From: a virus
DNA: 64,000 nt
Reading direction: 5' to 3' (one strand)
IMG/VR virus record: IMGVR_UViG_3300041097_000006
The notes under the pieces are model-generated. The model ran no database searches. It had not been told where the DNA came from and saw only the letters and a program-made list of their open reading frames with translations. Below, piece by piece: positions 3,321 through 14,675 of the stretch (its first letter is position 1; the number at the start of each line of letters is the position of its first letter). The translations under genes were made by a program, and so were the position numbers.

Positions 3321-4047
3321 GGGGCCTCCGCTCGAAACACCGTAGCGCGGTCTCGCGCGACGCATTGATGACCTCCACCCCGTTGAGCGCCAGGTCCAGC
3401 GCCAACGGCCCGAATTTTTCGATCCACACGTCATACGGAGATTCAACGTTCAGGCCCGCCGGGTGGTCACCGAACCAGTGCTTGCGGCCCCCTTTGCCCC
3501 TCCGCATGTCAAACCCGAGCAGCACCATGCGGGACGCTCCGGCATGGTATGCCAGGTTCATAGCCTGATATCCGGAGTTTCCACCCTCATGGATACGCCC
3601 CGCATCGAGGCACAGGCCCCGCCCGTTCGATGACGGGACGTGGTGCAGGCCGTACTGCGCGGCAGCCTCCGAGTCCCGCGTGTAGCACTTGCCGCGCAGA
3701 CCCGCCGGCAAGTCGGCATGATGCGCACGCCAGAATTTCCCATCGCACGCATACAGCGCGTCCAGCTCCGGCAGCATGCGATACGCATCATTCACACCGA
3801 GCATCTTCCAGCCGCGCGCTTTCGCCGCACGCACGTCCGATTCCACCAGGGACGGGCCGCCCGCGACGATACACACCGTGGCCCGCTCCCACATGCACCG
3901 GTACGCCGGGGCGGATACCAGGCGGCACGCCTGCCCGCGGGCCTCCAGTCGGGCCGCGCGCTGCGGGGTGACGTGCACAACGTCCCCCGGCATCGGCTTG
4001 CCTTCCGTGCCCACGTAGCGCCGCAAGACTCGCATTGCAATTTGCAT
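3301..4047 (-). CDS. DUF115/MAF_flag10 (Maf-like) putative glycosyltransferase with short N-terminal extension
   Basis: CIVAGGPSL...GVNDAY...LYACD..W...GGNSGYQAMNLAYHAGASRMVLLGFDM...VINAS. Confidence 0.7.
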   Translation of the reverse strand: MQIAMRVLRRYVGTEGKPMPGDVVHVTPQRAARLEARGQACRLVSAPAYRCMWERATVCIVAGGPSLVESDVRAAKARGWKMLGVNDAYRMLPELDALYACDGKFWRAHHADLPAGLRGKCYTRDSEAAAQYGLHHVPSSNGRGLCLDAGRIHEGGNSGYQAMNLAYHAGASRMVLLGFDMRRGKGGRKHWFGDHPAGLNVESPYDVWIEKFGPLALDLALNGVEVINASRETALRCFERRPLETVAD

Positions 4048-4104: not shown

Positions 4105-5322
4105 TTAGAACGTGCCCGTCACCAGCGCGAGCGGCCGATAGACCGTTAGAGCCAGGCGCTCTTCGCACAGGATCGCCACCATGTTTTTCACGAAAAAATC
4201 GCTGTGCGATTCGCTGATGCGGATGTTGGCATCCTCCCGGTCCCACACCTGCGCGCCCAGCTGGAACGCTCCCACCAGGAACGACCCCGTGGCCATGCTG
4301 TTCGTCGGCACCACCGGGCGGCCCCACACCATCGGGGCGCGCTGCATGGACGGGTCGCCGAACAGATAACGGCCCTGCGTGTCCTTGAGCAGCAGCAGTT
4401 CGGCCCAATCGACATGAGACAGCACCACGCCGTCCCCGACGTACTCGGAGCCGGTGGTCACCTGGAGCAGCGCCCGGAGGATCGTATCAAGCCGCTGGTC
4501 TCCCGACACCGCGCCGGAATACGCCGTGGCCTGGTTCATGAGGCCGTCCAGCGTGCCGCCGGTGCCGTCGCCGTTGAGGATTTCGTCCTCTTCCTCCAGC
4601 TTGAGACCGTAGGTCAGGCGGTTATCGATGTACCCCATCAGCATGCCGGCATCGGACAGCACCTGGCGCGATGCGGGAATCCAGTGCGCCACGGTGATAA
4701 CCGCCGCGGATTCGAGCGTGAACGTGATGCCCGATTCGGCCTTCGCCACGTTTTCACGGTTCGGGCTCGAATACTGCGGCGCCGCGGAATTTGTGAAAAC
4801 GTTTTCGCGGGCATACTCCACCACGTTGGACCCCGTGACCCCAGTGGGGATCAAGCTGCGGATGGTAAGCTGCCGCTCGGATGGCATGACCATCGCCACC
4901 CGATCCGCGGGGACCAGGGGCTGGCTGGCGCCGGTGGCGTTGACGATAGCCGTCTTGCTCGGAAACAGCGTTTTCAGAGCAACGGCGTCCATCGCCTTCG
5001 CCCGCGAACCCAGCGCGGCCGCGGCCCTCCACTCGTCGGACTCCGCCACCAGTTGACCGGGCGTCTTGACGCCGCGGGCTTCCGGCTCGACGTGGCGTTT
5101 CAGGGCGGCATCGGCCTTCTGCTCGGCGTCCAGGATGCGCGCTTGCAGCTCGGTCGACTTCTCTCCGAGCTTGACCAGCTCTTCGTTCGTCTTGGTGGTG
5201 ATCGCCGAAAGCGTCTTGACCTCGTGCAGGGCCTGATCCATCGCCTGCTGAGTCTGATCCTTCACGTCCTTGAGGCCCTGCTTCAAGACCTCCTGCACTT
5301 CCTTGATTTCATCGGGTTCCAT
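4105..5322 (-). CDS. Major capsid protein, HK97 family (with coiled-coil delta domain)
   Basis: N-terminal coiled coil; KAES.ITF...TVAHWIPASRQVLSDA, EEDEILNGDGTG, FVKNMVAILCEERLALTVYRP. Confidence 0.97.
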   Translation of the reverse strand: MEPDEIKEVQEVLKQGLKDVKDQTQQAMDQALHEVKTLSAITTKTNEELVKLGEKSTELQARILDAEQKADAALKRHVEPEARGVKTPGQLVAESDEWRAAAALGSRAKAMDAVALKTLFPSKTAIVNATGASQPLVPADRVAMVMPSERQLTIRSLIPTGVTGSNVVEYARENVFTNSAAPQYSSPNRENVAKAESGITFTLESAAVITVAHWIPASRQVLSDAGMLMGYIDNRLTYGLKLEEEDEILNGDGTGGTLDGLMNQATAYSGAVSGDQRLDTILRALLQVTTGSEYVGDGVVLSHVDWAELLLLKDTQGRYLFGDPSMQRAPMVWGRPVVPTNSMATGSFLVGAFQLGAQVWDREDANIRISESHSDFFVKNMVAILCEERLALTVYRPLALVTGTF

Positions 5323-5333
5323 CTTGCATTCCT

Positions 5334-5936
5334 TTAAAAAGCGTTGAATTCGTTCCGCATAACTTCCGCCAGGCTGGGCGCAGCGTCCCGCCGTCCCGAC
5401 ATCGTGCGGAATCCCCCCGCAGCAATGGTAACCGCCTGGGTCTTGCTAAACCCTGCATCCCGCAGGAATTCCTCAAATTCTCGAATGGTCTTGACCGCAG
5501 ATACGCCGGCCGCCACGTTCATCGGGAACGTCACCAACGAAATTTCCCACAGCTTAAGCGCGGTCAACTTACGCACTCCACCCTTCGTAATCTCCGCCCC
5601 GCCCGGCAGCACGTCGTACCCAAACGACATGCCGCGCACACTGCGCGCCTTCATGTGCGCTAGGGCCACCTGAGAACGGGGATCTTCCAAGACCAGGCGC
5701 CCCTCGAACGCGAGGCCGTGCTTGTCACTCTTGACCCGCGCGGTGCCAATGGGCTGGTCCGAACGATGCTGCCACAGCATGACGACGCGGCCATCGGCGT
5801 TCGCCTCAAACTCCTTGAACGCCCCGGCTTGCACCACGTCGCCGCCGCGGTCCACGTTGCCGTACACTGACGCGTAGCCGGAGAACTCCCCCGCATCGTC
5901 CGCCTTGAACTCCGTTTCGCATGACAAGAATTTCAT
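5334..5936 (-). CDS. Prohead maturation protease (HK97 gp4 / peptidase S78)
   Basis: FSGYASVYGNVDRGGDVV..GAF, MLWQH...PIG, GMSFGY, LWEISLVTFPMN. Confidence 0.96.
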   Translation of the reverse strand: MKFLSCETEFKADDAGEFSGYASVYGNVDRGGDVVQAGAFKEFEANADGRVVMLWQHRSDQPIGTARVKSDKHGLAFEGRLVLEDPRSQVALAHMKARSVRGMSFGYDVLPGGAEITKGGVRKLTALKLWEISLVTFPMNVAAGVSAVKTIREFEEFLRDAGFSKTQAVTIAAGGFRTMSGRRDAAPSLAEVMRNEFNAF

Positions 5937-7168
5937 GCCTCACCCCCTGTTCCGATCTGTGATACCGGCGCCATGTTAACCTGCGCGGTGTAGGCACTCA
6001 TGCCGGGGTCATCGGACGGCGCTAAGTTCTCGCGCACGCGGACTTCATTCCGCGACATGACGCCGTTTTGCAAGAACACCGAGTACAACCCGGCCCGGCC
6101 CGGCGCATCGGCCCGACGCAGCGCGTCCACATCGAACCGGAGGAAATACCGGCCCCGCTGTTCCACGGGCAGCAGCGCCCGGGCAAAGCTTTGCTCGTAC
6201 CGCGTCAGGTACGGTAGGAGCGTGAATTGTAAAAACCCCTCGGCATATTTTTCCAAGCTGTTGTAACTCGCCGAATCCTGGGCCATGACCAGATATGGCG
6301 GCACCCGGTAGATGCGGCATATCTCTTCGACCTCGAACTTCCGTGTCTCAAGAAACTGCGCGTCTTCAAGCGGCATAGTAACCTGCTTGATGTCCATGCC
6401 GCCTTCGAGCAGCTTCACACTATGCGCGTTGGTTAAGCCGGTCCAAAGGTCGTTCAGGATCTTCCGCGCGGTCTCACGCTCTTTGTCGCCCAGCCAGTCC
6501 TTTGCCAGCACCACCGCGCTAGACACCGCACCCTGCTTGAAAAACCGTGCCCCGAAACTCTCGGCGGCCAGGCCGTACCCGATAGCCTGCCGGGCGTACC
6601 CAACCGGCGAGAGCCCCAGGTACCCGTTACTGCCAAACCCTTTGAGGTGCCACACCGCGGACTGCGGTAGCAGCGCACCCCCGCGCCGGTACTCCATCGT
6701 CCCGTCGGACAGCACCCGCGCCGTAATCGTCGGGTCCGGGGTAATTGACGTAGGCATGCCCCGTGTGACCGACCGCTCCACGTAGCTATAGGAATTCCCC
6801 GCGAGACACAGGGCCGATACTTGCGCCTCGCGCAGATCCTGCGGGGTCATCCACAGGTTCGGGCTGCCGTTCAGCAGGCCAGCCAGTTCATGGTCCAAGA
6901 CCGGAACCGCGGTGCCGTCCCTGCGCCGCTCGTAGATACCCCAAGGTAGGCCCGCGATGGTCTCCGACAACAGGCGCACGCATGACCACACAGTGGTCAG
7001 GCGGAGAGCCGTATCCTCCGAGATGGTGATACCCGCGTCGGTATCGACGCCCAGGATGCGCCGAATAAACGCTTCGTCCGTGAGCGAGTACGTGCGGCCC
7101 CCGGCGGCCTTCGTGCCGCCGAACAAGCGCCGCAGCAACCCGCCTACAGGACGGGGTTGTTTAGCCAT
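5933..7168 (-). CDS. Portal protein, HK97 family
   Basis: VWSCVRLLSETIAGLPW, GLSPV.YAR..IG, DAQFLETRKF.VEEICRIYRVPP, GVMSRNEVR..ENL. Confidence 0.96.
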   Translation of the reverse strand: MAKQPRPVGGLLRRLFGGTKAAGGRTYSLTDEAFIRRILGVDTDAGITISEDTALRLTTVWSCVRLLSETIAGLPWGIYERRRDGTAVPVLDHELAGLLNGSPNLWMTPQDLREAQVSALCLAGNSYSYVERSVTRGMPTSITPDPTITARVLSDGTMEYRRGGALLPQSAVWHLKGFGSNGYLGLSPVGYARQAIGYGLAAESFGARFFKQGAVSSAVVLAKDWLGDKERETARKILNDLWTGLTNAHSVKLLEGGMDIKQVTMPLEDAQFLETRKFEVEEICRIYRVPPYLVMAQDSASYNSLEKYAEGFLQFTLLPYLTRYEQSFARALLPVEQRGRYFLRFDVDALRRADAPGRAGLYSVFLQNGVMSRNEVRVRENLAPSDDPGMSAYTAQVNMAPVSQIGTGGEA

Positions 7169-8850
7169 CCAGATATCCCCTTGTCTTCCTCGCTCCGCAC
7201 CGCAGCCCGCGACATGCCCATGAATATGGCAATCGCCCCGTCAATTTTCTGATCCGCCGCTTGCTTGACGGGTGAGTGCAGCCCCTTCGTGCTCGGCTTC
7301 CCAACAACGTTCGACAGGCACCACGTGGTGACCGGGTTCCCGTCGTGGTGCACTCGCCCGTCCACCAGGGCGGCGATGAAGTCGTCAACCGGCAGGGCGA
7401 AATTCCACGGTTTCTGCTGGAACTCTACTATATCTAGGGAATCGCCGACAATCTCCCCCACATCTAGGGCTACCTGCTGCGCGTTGAAAGGGTCGAAGAT
7501 GAATTCCCGGGCCCCGTAGGTGCGCAAGTCCGCGGCCACCTGCTCGGTAATCAGGCCGAAGTCCACCACCGCGCCGAGGGTCGGGGTGAGATGCCCCTCG
7601 CGCACCCACCGTTCATAGCTGGTACGGTTTTTCCCAGGGGCCTCGATGGTCTCCTGGGGAAGCCAGTACCGGCCGAACAGGTAGTAGTGGGGCTTTCCGT
7701 CCAGATACTTACGGAATGTATAGCTGGCAGCGCACAGGTCGATCTTGGACGCCATATCCAGAGACCCGAAACACTCGCACCCCGCGAGGTCCGCCGGCAT
7801 CAACAGCGGGTCCGCTGCGCGCTGCCAGTGCGCCAGGGGGATCAGCTGCGAACCAGCGCCGCACCACGCATTCAGGTGCTTGGTCTTGAACCGCGCCTGT
7901 GTTGCCGGCGTCATGATGGCCGCCCGCTGTTGCGCAATCAAAAAATCCTCGAACACGGAAACCCCGTAGTTGGGGTTCGCCTTCCGCAGCGCGGCCGGGT
8001 CCGTCCAGTCGTCGGCGTCGTCGATGCCGTAGAGCAGCCCGAACGCCTCGGGGTCGTCGATGACACCCTCCAGGATTTTTTTCACCCCCTGTTCATGCTC
8101 GTAGCATGGGCCTGCCAGGTTGTCCCCGGCGGTGGTGATAATCAACAGCAGTGGCTGCTCTCGCGCGCCCATGCCGGTCTGCATCGTGTCCACTAGATCC
8201 GGTACAGCATGCTCATGGTATTCATCAACAATGGCCGCGTGCGGGCTGGCGCCGTCCCCAGGTTTTCCAATGACGGGCTCGAACCGCGAGAAGTCCGCCT
8301 CGATAACCATCGAAGCTTTCAGTACCTCAATCCCGGCCGCCTCCAGCAAGTCCGGCGTTTTCTCGGCCATGAGCCGCGCCGGCCGGAACACCTCCCACGC
8401 CTGCCTTTCCGTTGTGGCACCGCTGTACACCTCCGCACCGTGTTCCCCATCCGCGCAGAAGAGCGCCAGGCCGATGGCCGCGGCCAGTACTGACTTACCG
8501 TTCTTGCGGGGGATTCGCAAGTATGCCGAACGGAAACGGCGCAGGCCGTCCTTATGACGCCGCCATCCGAAAATGTTGCACACGATGAACGACTGCCACG
8601 GTGCCAGTATCAGCATCTGCCGTTGCGCGGCCCACTTGCCCTTGACGTGCGGCAGAGCCTCGATGAACCGACACACGCGCTCGGCTTCGTCGACGTCGAA
8701 ATAGTACGGGTGCCCCGGCGTGTCTGACTCGGCCAGGTCGTTCAGGAACCGTTCGCACGCGCGGACTACCCACGCGCAATTGGGGATGGCCCCGTCGATT
8801 ACACCGTGCGCATAATCGAGTGCTGCCTGGACGTGGGGGCAATCAGCCAC
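7144..8850 (-). CDS. terL: Terminase large subunit (Terminase_1, HK97-like)
   Basis: Walker A IPRKNGKS, Walker B IVDEYHEH, ITTAG, nuclease LDMASKIDL and KIDGAIA. Confidence 0.97.
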   Translation of the reverse strand: MADCPHVQAALDYAHGVIDGAIPNCAWVVRACERFLNDLAESDTPGHPYYFDVDEAERVCRFIEALPHVKGKWAAQRQMLILAPWQSFIVCNIFGWRRHKDGLRRFRSAYLRIPRKNGKSVLAAAIGLALFCADGEHGAEVYSGATTERQAWEVFRPARLMAEKTPDLLEAAGIEVLKASMVIEADFSRFEPVIGKPGDGASPHAAIVDEYHEHAVPDLVDTMQTGMGAREQPLLLIITTAGDNLAGPCYEHEQGVKKILEGVIDDPEAFGLLYGIDDADDWTDPAALRKANPNYGVSVFEDFLIAQQRAAIMTPATQARFKTKHLNAWCGAGSQLIPLAHWQRAADPLLMPADLAGCECFGSLDMASKIDLCAASYTFRKYLDGKPHYYLFGRYWLPQETIEAPGKNRTSYERWVREGHLTPTLGAVVDFGLITEQVAADLRTYGAREFIFDPFNAQQVALDVGEIVGDSLDIVEFQQKPWNFALPVDDFIAALVDGRVHHDGNPVTTWCLSNVVGKPSTKGLHSPVKQAADQKIDGAIAIFMGMSRAAVRSEEDKGISGWLNNPVL

Positions 8851-9274
8851 GTGAGAGCAGCCCTCTGAACGCGTTCGCTCTTGGTGCCACGGGCAGACCG
8901 CGCATGACCTCCCCGCGCCCGGTGGGCGTCAGGCCCAGAGCCCGTAGGATCACGAACAGCCGGTTCAGCAAAGCCGGTTCCATGAACGCCCCATCCGCGC
9001 GGAACCGCGTCAGCAGGACCGCGGCCATCTCCACCACGAAGGCATCCGAAGTTTTCAGGGCCCCGGGAGGGGCGGCCCGTACCAGTTCGGCATAGCACAG
9101 AGCCGACTCCCACCCCATGTGATCGGGCGGAATGGGCTCCAGATCGGGCAAGCCCCCGGGTGCAGGTGTGCCCCCGGGTGCAGGCGGGCCGGAGGGCGCC
9201 GGGGCGGCGCGACGCTGCGGGTTTTTTTTGTACGCCCCCCGCAGCTCTAGGACGTTGGTCGGTAGCCGGCGCAT
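8843..9274 (-). CDS. terS: Terminase small subunit (P27 family)
   Basis: RRLPTNVLELRG N-terminus, LGLTPTGR C-terminal motif, directly upstream of terL. Confidence 0.88.
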   Translation of the reverse strand: MRRLPTNVLELRGAYKKNPQRRAAPAPSGPPAPGGTPAPGGLPDLEPIPPDHMGWESALCYAELVRAAPPGALKTSDAFVVEMAAVLLTRFRADGAFMEPALLNRLFVILRALGLTPTGRGEVMRGLPVAPRANAFRGLLSRG

Positions 9275-9381
9275 CGCAGCATCCATCTAGTGGGTAGACG
9301 GATGCCTAATACTAGATGTAGGGGGGTTATGTCAAGGCGGGTCCCGGGGGAGGGGGCGTTAACCGACGGAATCCGGCGATG

Positions 9382-9435
9382 AACACGTTGCAGCGGACGG
9401 GCCTGACGGCCCTCCGCTGAATTCACACGTTAGGT
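9382..9435 (+). repeat. attC: attC site 1, truncated (L'', L', R' present; R'' missing)
   Basis: AACAC GTTGCAGC GGACGGGCCTGACGGCCCTCC GCTGAAT TCACAC GTTAGGT; the 7 bp where R'' should be read GGCGATG. Confidence 0.75.
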
Positions 9436-9600
9436 TTCTCGGGCACGCTTGAGCGCAGCCCGCAGCCATTCTTTACCGCCGAGGCGGTCGTACTTCGCCT
9501 TCTCGGCTTCCGTTACCCGCTCCCGAATCATGGCCGTCTGAGCCTCTTCTGGTGGCAGTGCGGGGCGTCCGCGTGGCTTCTTTGGGGCCGCCTTAGTCAT
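9430..9600 (-). CDS. Cassette 1: 56-aa ribbon-helix-helix-like DNA-binding protein
   Basis: MTKAAPKKPRGRPALPPEEAQTAMIRERVTEAEKAKYDRLGGKEWLRAALKRARET; paralogue at 12048-12215; TAA stop is the complement of the TTA in R'. Confidence 0.7.
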   Translation of the reverse strand: MTKAAPKKPRGRPALPPEEAQTAMIRERVTEAEKAKYDRLGGKEWLRAALKRARET

Positions 9601-9877
9601 TCGCGCTCCGCAGGTATTCGCGCAGCGTGAGCGTTTCTCCGGCGTGCAGCCGCTTGTTGCACTTCGGACAGGTGTATGTCGAGCCGTGCGAACCGTCGCT
9701 ATGCTCGCAATCAACCGGGTACGGTGCTTCTGACCAGCCGCGCGCCATGTTCCACAGGTCAGGCTCGCCATCGCTGCATGGCGTACCTGGCCGAGATTGC
9801 GCTCCGCAGCACTGGCAAACCGCCCGCACTTTCCCATTCCTCGCTCGCACATAATTGACCGCTTTGCTGGTGCTCAT
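9593..9877 (-). CDS. Cassette 1: zinc-ribbon protein (CxxC...CxxC), unknown function
   Basis: VCQCCG...TYTCPKCN; GGGAG 7 nt before ATG 9877; overlaps the start of the regulator gene. Confidence 0.7.
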   Translation of the reverse strand: MSTSKAVNYVRARNGKVRAVCQCCGAQSRPGTPCSDGEPDLWNMARGWSEAPYPVDCEHSDGSHGSTYTCPKCNKRLHAGETLTLREYLRSAND

Positions 9878-9909
9878 CGTTTGCTCCCGCTTTCGTTGAT
9901 CGTGCATTT

Positions 9910-9955
9910 AGTGTGGCACAACAATTAGCGGTGCGCAAGCATTATTTGTGGCACA
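9910..9955 (-). promoter_or_regulatory. Cassette 1 sigma70-like promoter with two TGTG-G-CACA operator-like palindromes
   Basis: Minus strand TTGCGC-17bp-CACACT; TGTGGCACA at 9912-9920 and 9947-9955; same layout in cassette 6. Confidence 0.6.
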
Positions 9956-9958
9956 AAA

Positions 9959-10016
9959 ACCTAACTCCACATTGCACCGGATCGCCTCCGGCGCCCGGTG
10001 AATTCAGTCGTTAGAG
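9959..10016 (+). repeat. attC: attC site 2 (58 bp, intact)
   Basis: ACCTAAC TCCAC ATT[G]CACC GG[A]TCGCCTCCGGCGCCC GGTGAAT TCAGTC GTTAGAG. Confidence 0.92.
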
Positions 10017-10273
10017 CGCATGCGAATCTTGTCCGCCGCATCCCCAGCCGTTCCGTGTTCGTGGTCGCAGATGTTTGCGCAAACCTCGCGCTCGGCGAGC
10101 ACAGCCAGCCCGACGCAGTTCTCCGCAATCGCTTCTACTTGCTTGCGCCCGTCGCGCTCGCCGGCTTTGTATGCCGCTTGCGCAACCTCTTCCGCGTCCG
10201 CTCTCCCGATCCCATGCCCGGCCATCATGGAGTGGTATCGCTTGCTGCGCTTCTTCCAGTCTGCAAAGCTCAT
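10004..10273 (-). CDS. Cassette 2: 89-aa hypothetical phage protein
   Basis: GGGAG SD; AAYKAGERDG...AEREVCANIC...AADKIRMRSN resembles small phage proteins; ends inside attC2. Confidence 0.7.
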   Translation of the reverse strand: MSFADWKKRSKRYHSMMAGHGIGRADAEEVAQAAYKAGERDGRKQVEAIAENCVGLAVLAEREVCANICDHEHGTAGDAADKIRMRSND

Positions 10274-10302
10274 TTGTCGTTCTCCCTCTTGTCGGCCGTG
10301 CG

Positions 10303-10360
10303 CTCTAACACTACGTTGCAGCCGACCGCCTTCGGCGGCGGCTGAACTTCGACGTTAGAG
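10303..10360 (+). repeat. attC: attC site 3 (58 bp, intact)
   Basis: CTCTAAC ACTAC GTT[G]CAGC CG[A]CCGCCTTCGGCGGCG GCTGAAC TTCGAC GTTAGAG. Confidence 0.95.
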
Positions 10361-10367
10361 CGCTCCA

Positions 10368-11060
10368 TCACTCCGCACCAAAGCTCGCGGCAAGCCGGTC
10401 GTCGAAAGCGTCGTCGCTCTTGTCGCGCAAGATGCCCTCGAAAAACACGTCGGGCTCAGACTCCAGCAGGAAATGCGTCGCGCACGTCCAGGCTTTCGCC
10501 TCATCCTTCGCTTCCGGCGTCATCCTCTCGCTGCGGTCAATGGCCGCGAGGTATTCGCACTTCCGGCACTCTTGGCCGAGTCCGCAGCGCAAATGGTTGT
10601 CGGGTAGCGGCATCGCCGGTCTGGGGTCGTGGCCGCACATCTTGTAGCTGGTCGGCATGCCGCGCTCGCGCTCGTACTGGAACAGCAGCACCATGCGTGG
10701 CACTTCGTCGCTGATCTTCATTGCCGAGTACATCACTCGCGGCCACTCGCCGCCGTTCTCGCGCAGCCGGTCGCTCTCGGCGTTGCAGGCAGCGTGCCAT
10801 GCGTGGTCGCCGCATCCGCGCTGGTCAGTTCCACGGTTCGCCCGTTCCAGCCGCATTCCGCGCATGTACTCGGCGCCTTCCTTCAGCTGCTCCAGCATGT
10901 TGCCGCGGTCTCTGGCATAGCGGCGCAGGTACACGCCGGCCATCAGGCGGTCCTTCTGCTCAGGCGTCATTTTGTCGCGGTCCATGCCGGGCCAGCGCCA
11001 TAGCTCTTCGTGGTCAATCCGGTTCGCCAGTGCTTCCAGTTCTTCGGGTGTTGCTGCCAT
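10368..11060 (-). CDS. Cassette 3: ~230-aa hypothetical protein with Cys/His-rich C-terminal half
   Basis: Long ORF filling the cassette; GGAG 9 nt before ATG 11060; CGH...HLRC...ECRKC...WTCATH. Confidence 0.8.
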   Translation of the reverse strand: MAATPEELEALANRIDHEELWRWPGMDRDKMTPEQKDRLMAGVYLRRYARDRGNMLEQLKEGAEYMRGMRLERANRGTDQRGCGDHAWHAACNAESDRLRENGGEWPRVMYSAMKISDEVPRMVLLFQYERERGMPTSYKMCGHDPRPAMPLPDNHLRCGLGQECRKCEYLAAIDRSERMTPEAKDEAKAWTCATHFLLESEPDVFFEGILRDKSDDAFDDRLAASFGAE

Positions 11061-11089
11061 CTTCAAATTCTCCAAGTTCTACCACCGCG

Positions 11090-11146
11090 CTCTAACTATC
11101 GCTTGCAGCGGACGCCGTACCGGCGCCGCTGAAGCTGGCGTTAGAA
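11090..11146 (+). repeat. attC: attC site 4 (57 bp, intact)
   Basis: CTCTAAC TATCG CTT[G]CAGC GG[A]CGCCGTACCGGCGCC GCTGAAG CTGGC GTTAGAA. Confidence 0.95.
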
Positions 11147-11398
11147 CCCTTGAAACTCGCCCATGCGCTCGAACTGGTCGCGGGTCAGGAATACCGGCGT
11201 CACGGTGTATTCGCAGTCGCTCTCCGCAACCATCGCCTCAGCCTCGGCCGGCTCCATCACGCACGCGGTGCCGTCGTGCTCGACGCGAGAAAATCGCTCC
11301 GTCTTGTAGTCTTCGCACCCCGGCGCATGGTCAGCCGGTGGGTATTTGCCGCCCTTCGTTTCTTGCCAGTCGCGGCACCAGTCCTTGCAGTTGCACAT
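11141..11398 (-). CDS. Cassette 4: 85-aa hypothetical protein (Cys-rich N-terminus)
   Basis: MCNCKDWC...HAPGC...; SD GGAGG comes from the attC5 spacer; TAA stop lies in R' of attC4. Confidence 0.7.
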   Translation of the reverse strand: MCNCKDWCRDWQETKGGKYPPADHAPGCEDYKTERFSRVEHDGTACVMEPAEAEAMVAESDCEYTVTPVFLTRDQFERMGEFQGF

Positions 11399-11401
11399 GG
11401 G

Positions 11402-11489
11402 TTCTAACCCTCCGTTGCAGCAGACGCCGTGAAGCGCCGCAGGTTTATCCAAGCGCCGTCGCGCGGCGCTGCTGAACTACACGTTATGC
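11402..11489 (+). repeat. attC: attC site 5 (88 bp, intact)
   Basis: TTCTAAC CCTCC GTT[G]CAGC AG[A]CGCCG...CGGCGCT GCTGAAC TACAC GTTATGC. Confidence 0.93.
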
Positions 11490-12004
11490 GACGCAGCCCG
11501 AATCTCCCACAGGGTTCGAGCAACCCCGCTTTCCTCGGTGGCATCGCGCTTGTCCCGGAGCTTCACGCTGCTTTCGGCCCAGTTCTTGCGCGGTGCCAAG
11601 TCCTTCGCTTTCACCCAACCGGCAGCGCGGAGGGATGCCCCGCTTTCGTCCTGCCGGGTGTAGGTAATACACCGCCTGTACCCCATGGCTTTCGCCGCCC
11701 GCCAAATCGCCCCATACAACATCGAGTTGGCATTTCTGGTTCCATCGGTGCAAGTGCGGTTAACTTCCAAGGTCAGGCCGTCGTCAAAGCACCGGGCCAC
11801 GGGTCGCCCAGCCGTAGCAACGCCAACCAGTTCGGTGCCCTGGCGCAGCCCAACCCCAAACTTCCAGCCTGTCGGCGGCTTGTTGTGTCGGCGCATCGCG
11901 GCCACGAACGCCTTGGCCTCTGCCAGTGTTATCGGCACCACATGCAAAACCGGCATAACAAGGCGGTCAAGCGGACCTGCCGAAACGGCGCTTTCGCTCA
12001 TCAT
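11477..12004 (-). CDS. Cassette 5: XF1762-family phage protein (GNAT-like fold, inferred)
   Basis: RHNKPPTGWKFGVG, LVGVATAGRPVAR.FDDGLTLEVNRTCTDGTRNANSMLYGA, ITYT..DESGASLRAAGW; start lies inside attC6. Confidence 0.8.
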   Translation of the reverse strand: MMSESAVSAGPLDRLVMPVLHVVPITLAEAKAFVAAMRRHNKPPTGWKFGVGLRQGTELVGVATAGRPVARCFDDGLTLEVNRTCTDGTRNANSMLYGAIWRAAKAMGYRRCITYTRQDESGASLRAAGWVKAKDLAPRKNWAESSVKLRDKRDATEESGVARTLWEIRAASHNV

Positions 12005-12046
12005 TTACCCTTATCTCGCGGCAGTCCGCTTACCTCTACGTTAGGT
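11953..12046 (+). repeat. attC: attC site 6 (94 bp, intact)
   Basis: GCATAAC AAGGC GGT[C]AAGC GGA[C]CTGCCG...CGGCAGTCC GCTTACC TCTAC GTTAGGT. Confidence 0.93.
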
Positions 12047-12051
12047 TTCAT
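12001..12051 (-). CDS. Possible 16-codon coupling mini-ORF through attC6 (MKPNVEVSGLPRDKGK)
   Basis: ATG overlaps the stop of the 12048-12215 gene and its TGA overlaps the ATG of the cassette 5 gene (ATGA at both ends). Confidence 0.4.
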   Translation of the reverse strand: MKPNVEVSGLPRDKGK

Positions 12052-12215
12052 TTCCGCGGCTTCCTGGCCAGCTCGCGCACAAGCCAAGCCTTCCCGCCAC
12101 GCGCTTCGTATTCAGCCTTCTGTGCCTCCGTCACCCGCTCCCGAATCATGGCCGTCTGCGCTTGGTCAGGCGGTAGCGCAGGACGGCCGGGCTGTCGTTT
12201 CTCGGCCTTGGTCAT
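12048..12215 (-). CDS. Cassette 6: 55-aa ribbon-helix-helix-like DNA-binding protein (absent from ORF track)
   Basis: Hand translation MTKAEKRQPGRPALPPDQAQTAMIRERVTEAQKAEYEARGGKAWLVRELARKPRK; 28/36 identical to the cassette 1 regulator core. Confidence 0.75.
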   Translation of the reverse strand: MTKAEKRQPGRPALPPDQAQTAMIRERVTEAQKAEYEARGGKAWLVRELARKPRK

Positions 12216-12403
12216 GCGGCAATCGCATCCACGCCAGGAGCGCGAATCACAAGATCATTGCTGCCGCAATCCGGGCAACAATAGTTGTCCACCTTGGTCA
12301 AGGTGCCATCGGCCTTCCAGCCGGTCCAAGGCTTGTTCTCCCGCTCTTCCAGCGGGAGAATTACGCGGCACTTCATGCAACGGAAATGGGTCTCGGTTTT
12401 CAT
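12212..12403 (-). CDS. Cassette 6: 63-aa zinc-ribbon protein
   Basis: FRCMKCR...YCCPDCGSNDL; GGAGG SD before ATG 12403; ATGA-coupled to the regulator. Confidence 0.7.
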   Translation of the reverse strand: MKTETHFRCMKCRVILPLEERENKPWTGWKADGTLTKVDNYCCPDCGSNDLVIRAPGVDAIAA

Positions 12404-12414
12404 CTTCGCCTCCA

Positions 12415-12558
12415 TTACTTCGGGGCGCGTTGCGTAACTTTGAGCTGACCCTTCAGGTGGCCTTCGAGAATTTCGATCTCGTAGAACATCCCGCCGTGAA
12501 TGGTCATGGTCTTGCCGGTATAGCGGGCTAGGTCGCCGTAGAAGTAGGTGGTTTTCAT
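12415..12558 (-). CDS. Cassette 6: 47-aa hypothetical protein
   Basis: MKTTYFYGDLARYTGK...; GGAG SD; first gene after the cassette promoter. Confidence 0.65.
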   Translation of the reverse strand: MKTTYFYGDLARYTGKTMTIHGGMFYEIEILEGHLKGQLKVTQRAPK

Positions 12559-12589
12559 GTTGCGCTCCGCGTTCGTTGATGGTGTAGTT

Positions 12590-12634
12590 ATTGTGGCGCA
12601 ATAATCAACCATTGTCAAGCGTTTTCGTGGCACA
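12590..12634 (-). promoter_or_regulatory. Cassette 6 sigma70 promoter with two operator-like palindromes
   Basis: Minus strand TTGACA-17bp-CACAAT; TGTGGCGCA at 12592-12600 and CGTGGCACA at 12626-12634. Confidence 0.7.
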
Positions 12635-12637
12635 GAA

Positions 12638-12707
12638 ACCTAACTCCACATTCCACCGGACGGCCCAAATCTGCGCTTTGGTCCTCCGGTGAATTCAGCC
12701 GTTGGGC
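12638..12707 (+). repeat. attC: attC site 7 (70 bp, intact)
   Basis: ACCTAAC TCCAC ATT[C]CACC GG...CC GGTGAAT TCAGCC GTTGGGC; close relative of attC2. Confidence 0.92.
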
Positions 12708-13589: not shown

Positions 13590-13670
13590 ATTGTGGAACC
13601 GAAAATTTGCCTGGGAGCGACGGTTTCCATTCCGCCACGCCACGAAATTTTCACCCCCCTTCCCCTCCGT
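13590..13670 (-). other. Putative cos / packaging-initiation region
   Basis: G-rich run then AAAATTTC...GGAAACCG...AAATTTTCGG right after the HNH stop; in HK97-like phages cos lies between HNH and terS (inference from position). Confidence 0.4.
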
Positions 13671-14115
13671 CGATATTTTCCGAACAGGATCGGCCAATCG
13701 GCATTTCCCGCGGCCCGTCGTCCGGCTGCCGGCTCGTACCGTCACGCTGGCGCCCCGGGTGCCGCTCGTAGCCCCTCTGACGCTCCGCCTCCGACTTGGC
13801 ATCACTGCATGCCCGGCAGAGCCCTTGCGTATTCTCCGGCGTGTCCGAGCCGCCTTCAGCCAGCGGCACGATGTGATCCCGAATCGTCGCCAGTTCGACC
13901 CGTCCCGCCGCCTCACACGCCGCGCACAACGGGGAGTGCCGAAACAGTTCCTCGCGCTGCCGCTGGAGCCATCGCCCGGTTCTCCGCCGGCCCGTTTCGC
14001 TCGCGGTATTTTTCCACGCCGGTTGTTCGTGATCGCCACACCGCGAGGATTTACCGTCCGTTAATTCTGTGCATCCAGGATACGTGCACGGTTTTTTCGG
14101 TAATTTTCTCGCCAC
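13651..14115 (-). CDS. HNH endonuclease (HK97 gp74-like terminase accessory)
   Basis: KPCTYPGC...RC..H, PLCAAC...ATIRDHIVPLAEGGSD...N.QGLCRAC..AKS; GTG start after AGGAGG. Confidence 0.9.
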   Translation of the reverse strand: MARKLPKKPCTYPGCTELTDGKSSRCGDHEQPAWKNTASETGRRRTGRWLQRQREELFRHSPLCAACEAAGRVELATIRDHIVPLAEGGSDTPENTQGLCRACSDAKSEAERQRGYERHPGRQRDGTSRQPDDGPREMPIGRSCSENIDGGEGG

Positions 14116-14196
14116 GGTATTTCCTCCTGAAATATAAATAGGCATCCCGCATACCGTCCGGCCCGCCGTCCGATTCGCCCATCTCCTCCATCCCCT

Positions 14197-14396
14197 TGTC
14201 CGAAACGTCCGATTCACCTCCCCTTTAGGGGGTGAATCGGACGTTTCGGACATAGGGGAATGGATGGGCGTACGATAATCGACGTGACTAATCGGACATG
14301 AATCGTACGCTGATTCGTACGCTGCGAATACGAAAAATCGGACGATAATTATCGTCATGAACGCGGTAATTATGAGCCCGGTTATCATAATTACCG
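14197..14396. promoter_or_regulatory. Cluster of perfect inverted repeats (candidate replication origin or regulatory hub)
   Basis: 22-bp IR 14197-14218/14231-14252, 16-bp palindrome GACGATAATTATCGTC 14341-14356, 12-bp IR 14364-14375/14385-14396; recurrent AATCGGAC and CGTACG. Confidence 0.6.
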
Positions 14397-14675
14397 TACC
14401 GAACCCGCCCGCACCACGGGATACCGGCCCGTCCGCCAAATCGTCCAGGGCGAATTCAACGCCCCCCGTAACCCGCCGGGGGCCAGGTCCAGCAGCGCGC
14501 AACACCACACGAACCCGAACGGCCGGCGGTCGTCGCTGTATACCCACCGCGCGGGCTCCAGTGTGGCCGCCACGTCCGGGGGCATCTGGCGCAGGTTCGC
14601 CTGGTGGTCACGGACGGCCTGGAGGATGACGGCGGCCACCAGGCCCCGGTGAAACGCTATTTGCTCGGCGTTCAT
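14391..14675 (-). CDS. Hypothetical protein (94 aa)
   Basis: LVAAVILQAVRD...ARW..SDD..PFGFVWCC..LDL.P..LR pattern typical of small phage proteins; ATGA-coupled. Confidence 0.7.
   Translation of the reverse strand: MNAEQIAFHRGLVAAVILQAVRDHQANLRQMPPDVAATLEPARWVYSDDRRPFGFVWCCALLDLAPGGLRGALNSPWTIWRTGRYPVVRAGSVR

Follow-up and report, generated by a model that had tools for sequence, protein, structure and literature searches.

The window analysed here, a stretch of 64,000 nucleotides from the IMG/VR virus record IMGVR_UViG_3300041097_000006, repeats exactly after 38,480 bp, being a sequence of that length wrapped on itself, and it runs through one whole phage-type genome about 1.66 times; each feature recurs at +38,480, and the coordinates given below are those of the first copy. 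A search for RNA runs containing the stretch returned none; four DNA runs of a single sediment-metagenome study contain it and may be where it comes from. The gene of an HNH endonuclease is separated from terS by an array of attC-type sites, whose GTTRRRY boxes are found on the + strand at 9429, 10010, 10354, 11140, 11483, 12040, 12701 and 13312, and the spaces between these boxes are filled by small minus-strand genes. Units 1 and 6 of the array form a pair of twin cassettes, in which a promoter of sigma-70 type with two palindromes stands beside an attC site, followed by one or two small cargo genes and, in the last position, by the gene of a small protein of 55-56 amino acids (aa), referred to here as ribbon-helix-helix-like (RHH-like). 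The strongest support for this observation comes from the same layout being kept in about 50 other loci, rather than from the window itself.

Within its canonical limits, cassette 1 covers positions 9430-10010, from G/TTAGGT (9429/9430) to G/TTAGAG (10010/10011), the slash marking the crossover point; its attC is oriented on the + strand and its genes lie on the minus strand. The attC site (9959-10016, +) scores 60.2 bits with R1, a covariance model built from eight attC sites in + orientation. The promoter is placed at 9910-9938 (minus), with the -35 element TTGCGC (9938-9933), a 17-nt spacer, and TGc followed by the -10 element CACACT (9915-9910). Two candidate operators share the sequence TGTGCCACA: operator 1 (9947-9955), inside a 13-bp palindrome, TTTGTGgCACAAA, and 3 nt from the R'' box of attC, and operator 2 (9912-9920), overlapping the -10, the two being 35 bp apart from centre to centre. 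The cargo gene encodes a 94-aa zinc-ribbon protein with four cysteines (P0003; 9593-9877, minus), and its stop codon overlaps the start of the RHH-like gene (ATGA). The latter (P0001, 56 aa; 9430-9600, minus) ends with a TAA stop inside the boundary R box, AACCTAAC.

Cassette 6 covers positions 12041-12701 (+), from G/TTAGGT (12040/12041) to G/TTGGGC (12701/12702), and its attC (12638-12707, +) scores 62.4 bits with R1. Its promoter (12590-12618, minus) is composed of TTGACA (12618-12613), a 17-nt spacer and CACAAT (12595-12590), and its candidate operators are one-mismatch versions of the palindrome, namely TGTGCCACG (operator 1, 12626-12634) and TGCGCCACA (operator 2, 12592-12600), 34 bp apart, the second lying within a longer palindrome, TTATTG-N5-CAATAA. 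Three genes follow on the minus strand: a 47-aa cargo open reading frame (ORF; 12415-12558), placed ahead of the gene of a 67-aa zinc-ribbon cargo protein (P0004; 12212-12415), maybe of 63 aa if read from an inner ATG behind GGAGG, and the gene of the 55-aa RHH-like protein (P0002; 12048-12215). A preliminary description of this DNA had given cassette 6 the zinc-ribbon and terminal genes only; both stand, and the conserved 47-aa ORF had been overlooked. The promoters and palindromes were found where it had put them, beside attC and with the palindromes 34-35 bp apart, and the two sites that it had numbered 'attC 2' (cassette 1) and 'attC 7' (cassette 6) are indeed close relatives.

Comparing the twins with each other, P0001 and P0002 are 67% identical (E 1e-21), and the core from GRP to WL, already recognised as homologous in the preliminary description, has 28 of 36 positions identical; of its codon changes, 15 are synonymous and 8 non-synonymous. 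Meanwhile, the CxxC...CxxC proteins encoded ahead of them, described from the start as different from each other, are unrelated (P0003 and P0004, E 0.17). The same pattern is seen in the DNA, where the two units align at about 80% between attC and the first ATG, promoter included, and align again over the last gene, with no alignment in the region between them.

Searching with nhmmer and the 92-nt promoter region of the twins gave about 50 loci of metagenomic, viral and metagenome-assembled genome (MAG) origin, each upstream of a homologue of the small protein; 75 loci encoding the small protein were gathered from the encoding contigs and from viral, genome and metagenome collections. The features kept across the family are attC, both operators, the -35, the extended -10, the ribosome-binding site (RBS) and the terminal protein. 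In gene orientation, 40 unique copies give the consensus GTTAGGT-TTC-TGTGCCACA-AATAATGC-TTGAC-(variable)-TTAATTGT-TGTGCCACA-AT-AACTACACGATCAAC-...-GGAG-...-ATG, with a promoter of the form TTGAC-17-TGcCACAAT, the TGc of the extended -10 standing right before CACAAT in most copies. The palindromes are the best-conserved blocks of the promoter region (0.92 for operator 1 and 0.95 for operator 2, compared to 0.75 for the -35 and 0.59 for the eight bases after it). Each of the 40 unique copies has operator 1 adjoining the R'' box, and a strict pair of operators 33-38 bp apart was found in 28 of the 37 unique homologues having at least 700 nt upstream, most of the remaining nine combining a strict site with a degenerate one. 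At the opposite end of the unit, the small gene has its stop codon within the box AACCTAAC or 0-4 nt from it across loci, while the attC beside the promoter is present throughout, in several subtypes.

Within the 38.5-kb genome, the 11-mer TTGTGCCACAA, allowing one mismatch at most, occurs solely at the twin promoters, indicating local control in cis, and the operators are flanked by AT-rich runs in a genome of 64% G+C. These data bear on the possibility that the palindromes are bound by a host factor or by another phage factor, or are kept merely by recent descent, the small protein then being no DNA-binding regulator. The lack of a family match, the lack of covariation and the poor monomer model of the small protein, as described below, would agree with such a view. 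However, the sites are restricted to the neighbourhood of the small-protein gene, both within the genome and across loci, conservation peaks exactly on the palindromes while the adjoining spacer has diverged, and the dimer model yields an RHH ribbon, one face of which carries R26, R28 and T30, so this explanation is held to be quite improbable. An identity of the palindrome with the LexA or CRP sites was rejected, as their consensus sequences do not fit. A hairpin in the leader around the RBS was also dropped, its pairs being inconsistently kept in the promoter alignment on inspection by eye. A further conserved block, CGATCAAC, with GATC (0.81), is seen at 9894-9902 and 12573-12581, corresponding to positions 64-72 of the promoter alignment in gene orientation, just 3' of the likely transcription start.

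A distant member of the wider superfamily, P0149 (L091/L092), is also encoded in a cassette of this design, where an inverted repeat right after the R box and a second one near the -10 are followed by the gene of a 70-aa acidic cargo protein and then by the terminal RHH-like gene. Unlike the close family, this cassette (L091:2601-3249) is in sense orientation and has other repeat sequences, AGACAC-N5-GTGTCT beside the R box. Consequently, the design is older than the close family, and its orientation is not fixed in the superfamily.

Regarding the cargo, one or two ORFs of 47-107 aa lie between the leader and the small gene, and they belong to at least 15 unrelated families within the same shared frame, which supports the earlier proposal of mobile promoter-bearing cassettes with swappable effectors. 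One locus (L011, 5893-6150) is an empty chassis, with attC, an operator-bearing promoter and the RHH-like gene right after the leader, and no cargo ORF. The combinations are also exchanged: the 94-aa zinc ribbon is paired with the KRARET type of small-protein C-terminus in the window, L024 and L025, and with the NRKRK type in L031, L009 and L020, while the pair of 47-aa and 66-aa cargo proteins occurs with two regulator types and two attC types (cassette 6 of the window and L027). The finding of the same cargo with different regulator and attC types indicates mosaic modules and recombination within the conserved arms. The regulator of L031 joins the N-terminal half of the window's protein to a C-terminal half of the NRKRK type, implying a crossover inside the conserved stretch that encodes IRERVT.

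The P0003 family keeps C21, C24, C70 and C73 invariant, with an excess of synonymous changes, and the 47-aa ORF of cassette 6 differs from that of L027 by 10 synonymous and 4 non-synonymous codon changes. As judged from the sequences, the cargo ORFs are real genes under purifying selection. Distant relatives of P0003 (P0079 and P0082) are found in other phage operons, where the small protein is not encoded downstream. The searches for the identity of the cargo gave little: PHROGs returned zero matches for about 20 cargo proteins of other loci, and P0003 and P0004 had no PHROG match either, nothing above threshold in Pfam and NCBIfam, only sub-threshold zinc-finger matches, and none in PADLOC. 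A sub-threshold match of P0004 to the Lar restriction-alleviation family (E 0.034, 14.5 bits with a cut-off of 39.6) is a mere hint. The AlphaFold2 (AF2) model of P0003 has a predicted local distance difference test score (pLDDT) of 62 and zero Foldseek matches at E <=0.001, and the atlas neighbours of P0003 and P0004 are generic viral zinc ribbons only.

An alternative closer to the emphasis of the preliminary description is that of mobile promoters whose main role would be to drive the downstream promoterless cassettes, such as 5-2, and terS where no platform promoter (Pc) is at hand, the small genes being secondary. The twin promoters do share the orientation of terS and of all cassette genes, the minus strand is free of intrinsic-terminator-like sites from either promoter up to the next genes within the array, and no integrase, hence no attI/Pc platform, was seen among the window ORFs scanned. 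Nevertheless, the array stands within a co-oriented block, from the HNH gene (13651-14547) to terS (8843-9286), terL (7144-8850) and portal (5933-7168), all on the minus strand, which can supply transcription from upstream; a copy of the unit in a Thiobacillus integron points towards intI, away from the other cassettes. Moreover, the cargo ORFs are not filler, because they are under purifying selection, and a promoter that represses itself would be poor as a constitutive driver. A primary role as mobile promoters is accordingly regarded as unlikely.

Concerning the status of the units as cassettes, both twin sites have the R''-L''...L'-R' arms, the boxes and the extra L'' base by which integron attC sites are recognised. 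On the + strand, RYYYAAC is separated by 5 nt from an L'' arm that has a single bulged base, and a loop leads to the L' arm, followed after 5-6 nt by GTTRRRY, the bulged base of the 5' arm being directly visible in the sequence. The homology between the twins starts at G/TTAGGT (9430 and 12041) and stops at the next G/TT (10010 and 12701), and because these limits coincide with the crossover points, each twin owns the attC beside its own promoter. In about 35 loci, the sequence diverges straight after the AAC of the boundary box, as expected for a cassette border.

The orientation was settled with a Thiobacillus MAG encoding a relative of the small protein along with three integron integrases (TIGR02249, 461-477 bits compared to a cut-off of 265). 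The R1 matches of all three loci point away from intI, as canonical for the top strand; thus, the + strand of the window is the canonical cassette strand and all genes of the array are antisense. The related loci agree with this, as 83 of 84 R1 matches lie on the minus strand when the gene is on the + strand, that is, antisense to it. One of the Thiobacillus contigs (L084/L021) has IntI at 4613-5557 (477 bits compared to 265) and attC sites ending at 3348, 3020 and 2245, which read away from IntI, and its third cassette contains the promoter (2239-2305), the gene of a 107-aa cargo protein and the small gene (2789-2950), pointing towards intI. The unit is therefore a true integron cassette, met in an IntI-bearing array. 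The three integrases of this MAG (L084-L086, G001) are full-length and located on three contigs, each with attC sites matching the phage-derived R1, suggesting such hosts as a source or sink of the phage cassettes.

Close relatives of the terminal small protein form about 70 clusters; they are 60-90% identical and metagenomic, two records being named Propionivibrio, and none of them has a Pfam domain. G11, R12, P13, L15, P17, I25, R26, E27, R28, V29, T30, Y37, G41, K43, W45 and L46 are invariant in their alignment. A full profile search extends the family to a superfamily of about 200 clusters with the pattern (R/K)GRPxLPP...IxxRxT-helix-LGG-WLRxxL, which reads like the strand of an RHH protein followed by two helices, while the N-terminal RGRP/PGRP arm resembles the core of an AT-hook by weak matches. 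A Pfam scan of 60 superfamily members gave only two single-member matches, both sub-threshold, to HTH_32 and AT_hook (E 0.032 for AT_hook), and profile searches of PDB sequences (A3, A5) gave nothing significant, with a weak resemblance to the HMG-I/Y AT-hook at E 0.85.

When modelled as a homodimer, the small protein scores 0.43, compared to 0.00 for the best control, and passes a mark that 20 of 30 proteins with a solved structure of two identical chains attain, as does 1 of 23 with a solved single-chain structure. At least 96% of contacts are shared between the three runs, with a partner pLDDT of at least 71. The contacts follow i+j=52 over residues 21-30 (26-26, 27-25, 28-24, 29-23 and 30-22), forming a two-stranded antiparallel beta-ribbon centred on R26, with contacts 46-46 and 49-49 in helix 2; T22, M24, R26, R28 and T30 share one face of the modelled ribbon. 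On this model, an RHH-type dimer is proposed for the small protein, although the homodimer result may partly stem from the model's memory of RHH structures and would then speak of likeness rather than of binding. The named language-model neighbours all belong to RHH families (MobC_2, TacA1, NikA-like and CcdA; 0.88-0.89), and they are leads only. In three loci (L036, L034 and L057), the RHH-like ORF is extended C-terminally to 90, 130 and 94 aa, respectively, the extension in L036 being a CxxC-rich, zinc-ribbon-like tail; these extended ORFs could be fusions or effects of assembly or frameshift.

The language-model neighbours could point to two other roles. MobC- and NikA-like RHH proteins are accessory parts of DNA-processing machines, and, together with operator 1 abutting the R'' box in every unique copy, this could suggest that the small protein acts on recombination, where, bound at operator 1, it would modulate the access of IntI to its own attC as a stabiliser or directionality factor. 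Operator 2, however, sits squarely on the -10, the classic position of a repressor, and IntI uses a folded single strand, whereas an RHH dimer binding a palindrome needs a duplex; a role in recombination is very unlikely.

The second role would be that of toxin-antitoxin (TA) addiction cassettes, in which the upstream protein is a toxin and the RHH protein its antitoxin and autorepressor, the array being thereby stabilised, in the way that TA cassettes stabilise chromosomal integrons. The operon is compact, its genes overlap, it has a promoter of its own and it ends in an RHH-type gene, all of which is compatible with this; cassettes with their own promoter are, in chromosomal integrons, typically TA systems (PMC13108822), and the language-model leads include the antitoxin families TacA1 and CcdA. 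Yet the 55-aa protein is nearly invariant and has nothing beyond the RHH and a short basic arm, hence no partner-specific region for neutralising a toxin, while its partners come from at least 15 unrelated families, with which an antitoxin that binds protein would need to co-vary. Besides, L011 has the promoter and the RHH gene without any partner, relatives of P0003 occur in other phage operons without the small protein, and no match to a toxin family was obtained in Pfam, NCBIfam or PADLOC. A TA role of the twins is therefore considered unlikely.

Considering these alternatives, the twins are probably self-repressing expression chassis, whole integron cassettes whose genes run antisense to attC. 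In gene orientation, attC is followed by operator 1 directly after the R'' box, the -35, operator 2 over the extended -10, a conserved leader with the RBS, one or two cargo genes, and the coupled 55-aa gene with its stop in the boundary R box. According to the proposed mechanism, the promoter would fire on entry, or wherever the cassette lands, and the cargo and regulator would be made from one transcript, with translational coupling through the ATGA start-stop overlaps. RHH dimers would then occupy both TGTGcCACA palindromes, at the -10 and at the site 35 bp upstream beside attC, with the basic, GRP-containing N-terminal arm possibly contacting the AT-rich operator flanks, and this occupancy would stop transcription once cargo and regulator have been made. 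Expression would thus come as a burst and then go off, at any place to which IntI or homologous recombination brings the cassette. As far as the comparison with known operons can suggest, an accessory or counter-defence function in the phage would be the most likely one for the cargo, here three small proteins including two zinc ribbons.

Several points weigh against this interpretation. The cassette 1 promoter has only 6 of 12 consensus matches and fails the consensus scan; the cassette 6 promoter, with 10 of 12, passes it, and since the scan found 2 promoter-like sites in 5.8 kb, where 1.3 are expected, a consensus match alone is not significant. Each operator of cassette 6 departs from the palindrome by one mismatch. 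Close family members are 60-90% identical, so the conservation of the promoter is partly due to shared ancestry, and because both the operators and the beta-strand are nearly invariant, there is no covariation and co-occurrence is the only link between protein and site. Neither the small protein nor its wider superfamily is recognised, as RHH or otherwise, above threshold in Pfam, NCBIfam, PHROG, PADLOC or PDB sequences; the AF2 monomer is poor (pLDDT 67), with three helices and with residues 17-26 helical, and the fold searches were empty, the best Z of the monomer in VIA-align, 2.8, being meaningless. Finally, there were zero cargo matches to known anti-defence proteins in the families searched.

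Thus, the RHH fold anticipated by the preliminary description agrees with the beta-ribbon of the homodimer, but not with the helical monomer or the family searches. Its overall proposal stands, on comparative evidence, for mobile promoter cassettes, a conserved regulator-like protein and swappable effectors; for autorepression, and for DNA binding by the small protein, we infer as much from the co-occurrence of the gene and the palindromes in these sequences. The function of the cargo, likewise, we infer by analogy.

Besides the twins, the genome has further phage-type genes, encoding an NrS-1-type primase-helicase, a DEAD-box helicase, a DUF2800 nuclease, an Enc34-type single-stranded DNA-binding protein and a family A polymerase. 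Neighbouring cassettes of the window encode an orphan-type methyltransferase (PADLOC, 271 bits) and an XF1762-family protein (196 bits), and in related arrays the adjoining cassettes often encode DNA methyltransferases, including N6 and N4 types. Methyltransferases in the array fit a counter-defence theme, with no proof for the twins themselves.

Some particularities of the array borders were also observed. The attC between cassettes 5 and 6 (11953-12046) is long, with 94 nt, and overlaps the first ~17 codons of the XF1762-family gene (11477-12004), whose inner ATG is held in the box GTTATGC. The cassette 2 gene, the XF1762-family gene and the methyltransferase gene each overrun the G/TT border of their own cassette by two codons (10004-10010, 11477-11483 and 12695-12701), and the stop codons of these three antisense genes are supplied by the neighbouring attC arm, in two of the three from the shared motif TGAATTCA. 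The outermost attC beside terS (9375-9435) matches R1 at 52 bits and has GGCGATG in place of the RYYYAAC R'' box, and this end of the array looks degenerate.

Integron cassettes are usually described as promoterless and reliant on the platform Pc, the known exceptions being mostly TA pairs. As in the promoter-bearing TA cassettes of chromosomal integrons (PMC13108822), the twins have their own promoter and a two- or three-gene operon with an RHH-type protein, and their cassette type occurs in a real chromosomal integron (L084). They differ from TA cassettes by having no recognisable toxin, by a regulator that lacks a toxin-binding extension and is constant across partners, and by the existence of a partner-less copy.

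Clusters of attC sites without an integrase (CALINs), often with DNA methyltransferases, are described in phage genomes in the passages searched of PMC9892861, and the array of the window, with its attC-bounded cassettes in a phage genome without IntI, is like them; consequently, the array as such is not new. In those passages, the cassettes of two virulent phages lie in the same, typical direction, and a conserved regulated chassis is not mentioned.

Similar to the Arc/Mnt- and CopG/MetJ-type RHH autorepressors, the small protein has about 55 aa, a beta-strand in which basic and polar residues alternate, a pair of helices with a G-G-x turn and a modelled dimer ribbon, and the twin operators are, like theirs, short palindromes of metbox-like length, two per promoter. 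Unlike those repressors, it has no sequence-family match, carries a conserved N-terminal GRPxLPP arm, and is encoded last rather than first.

The operons of anti-CRISPR (acr) and anti-CRISPR-associated (aca) genes offer a further comparison, their logic being a strong early promoter, variable anti-defence genes and a terminal autorepressor acting on inverted repeats over the -10. Both they and the twins possess unrelated, variable small genes, a conserved DNA-binding-type protein in the last position, and promoters with inverted repeats, of which one lies over the -10. The phage or mobile-element context is also shared, with cassette 1 lying just upstream of the co-oriented terS, terL and portal. 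In some Pseudomonas phages, acr loci controlled by Aca1 lie within the block of late structural genes. Aca14 (WP_005725436.1) is an autorepressor of the RHH type; it binds an inverted repeat over the -10, and both its own operon and a neighbouring anti-defence operon are repressed by it (PMC13551039).

Aca regulators are recognised by being encoded last, by inverted repeats at or over the promoter -10, and by a known anti-CRISPR or anti-defence gene upstream. The twins present the first two, and no such upstream gene was found among about 20 cargo proteins in PHROGs or for the zinc ribbons of the window in Pfam, NCBIfam and PADLOC. Compared by description only, Aca14 has an AT-rich site and a long helical extension (PMC13551039), whereas the twins have a TGTGcCACA site and a protein of 55 aa; moreover, unlike in acr-aca operons, the whole operon is an attC-bounded integron cassette. 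The twins thus resemble acr-aca operons in design, a resemblance by which membership is not established. That the cassette family is a portable anti-defence launcher, an acr-aca-type operon packaged as an integron cassette, is a tentative idea and on balance doubtful.

In terms of classification, the twins combine known kinds, namely autoregulated RHH operons, promoter-bearing cassettes and acr-aca-type modules, while the protein family is unclassified and the recurring chassis was not found described in the literature searched. What they represent is a recurrent cassette type, with its own two-operator promoter and a dedicated RHH-like regulator that frame many unrelated small genes, known from attC arrays of phages and from at least one genuine bacterial integron, its genes always antisense to attC, and such a unit suggests how cassettes get expressed without Pc, for instance in a phage, and how they are held in check. 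If the regulator is Aca-like, the conserved promoter and last gene would serve as a search handle for unannotated phage accessory and counter-defence candidates, and integron recombination would be linked to the arms race between phage and host from the phage side. If the operon packaged in the cassettes is truly of the anti-defence kind, one could use the RHH protein as a new Aca-like bait with which to find, through guilt by association, dozens of unknown small anti-defence proteins, and integrases together with recombination in the conserved arms could shuffle self-limiting counter-defence genes between phage arrays and bacterial integrons.

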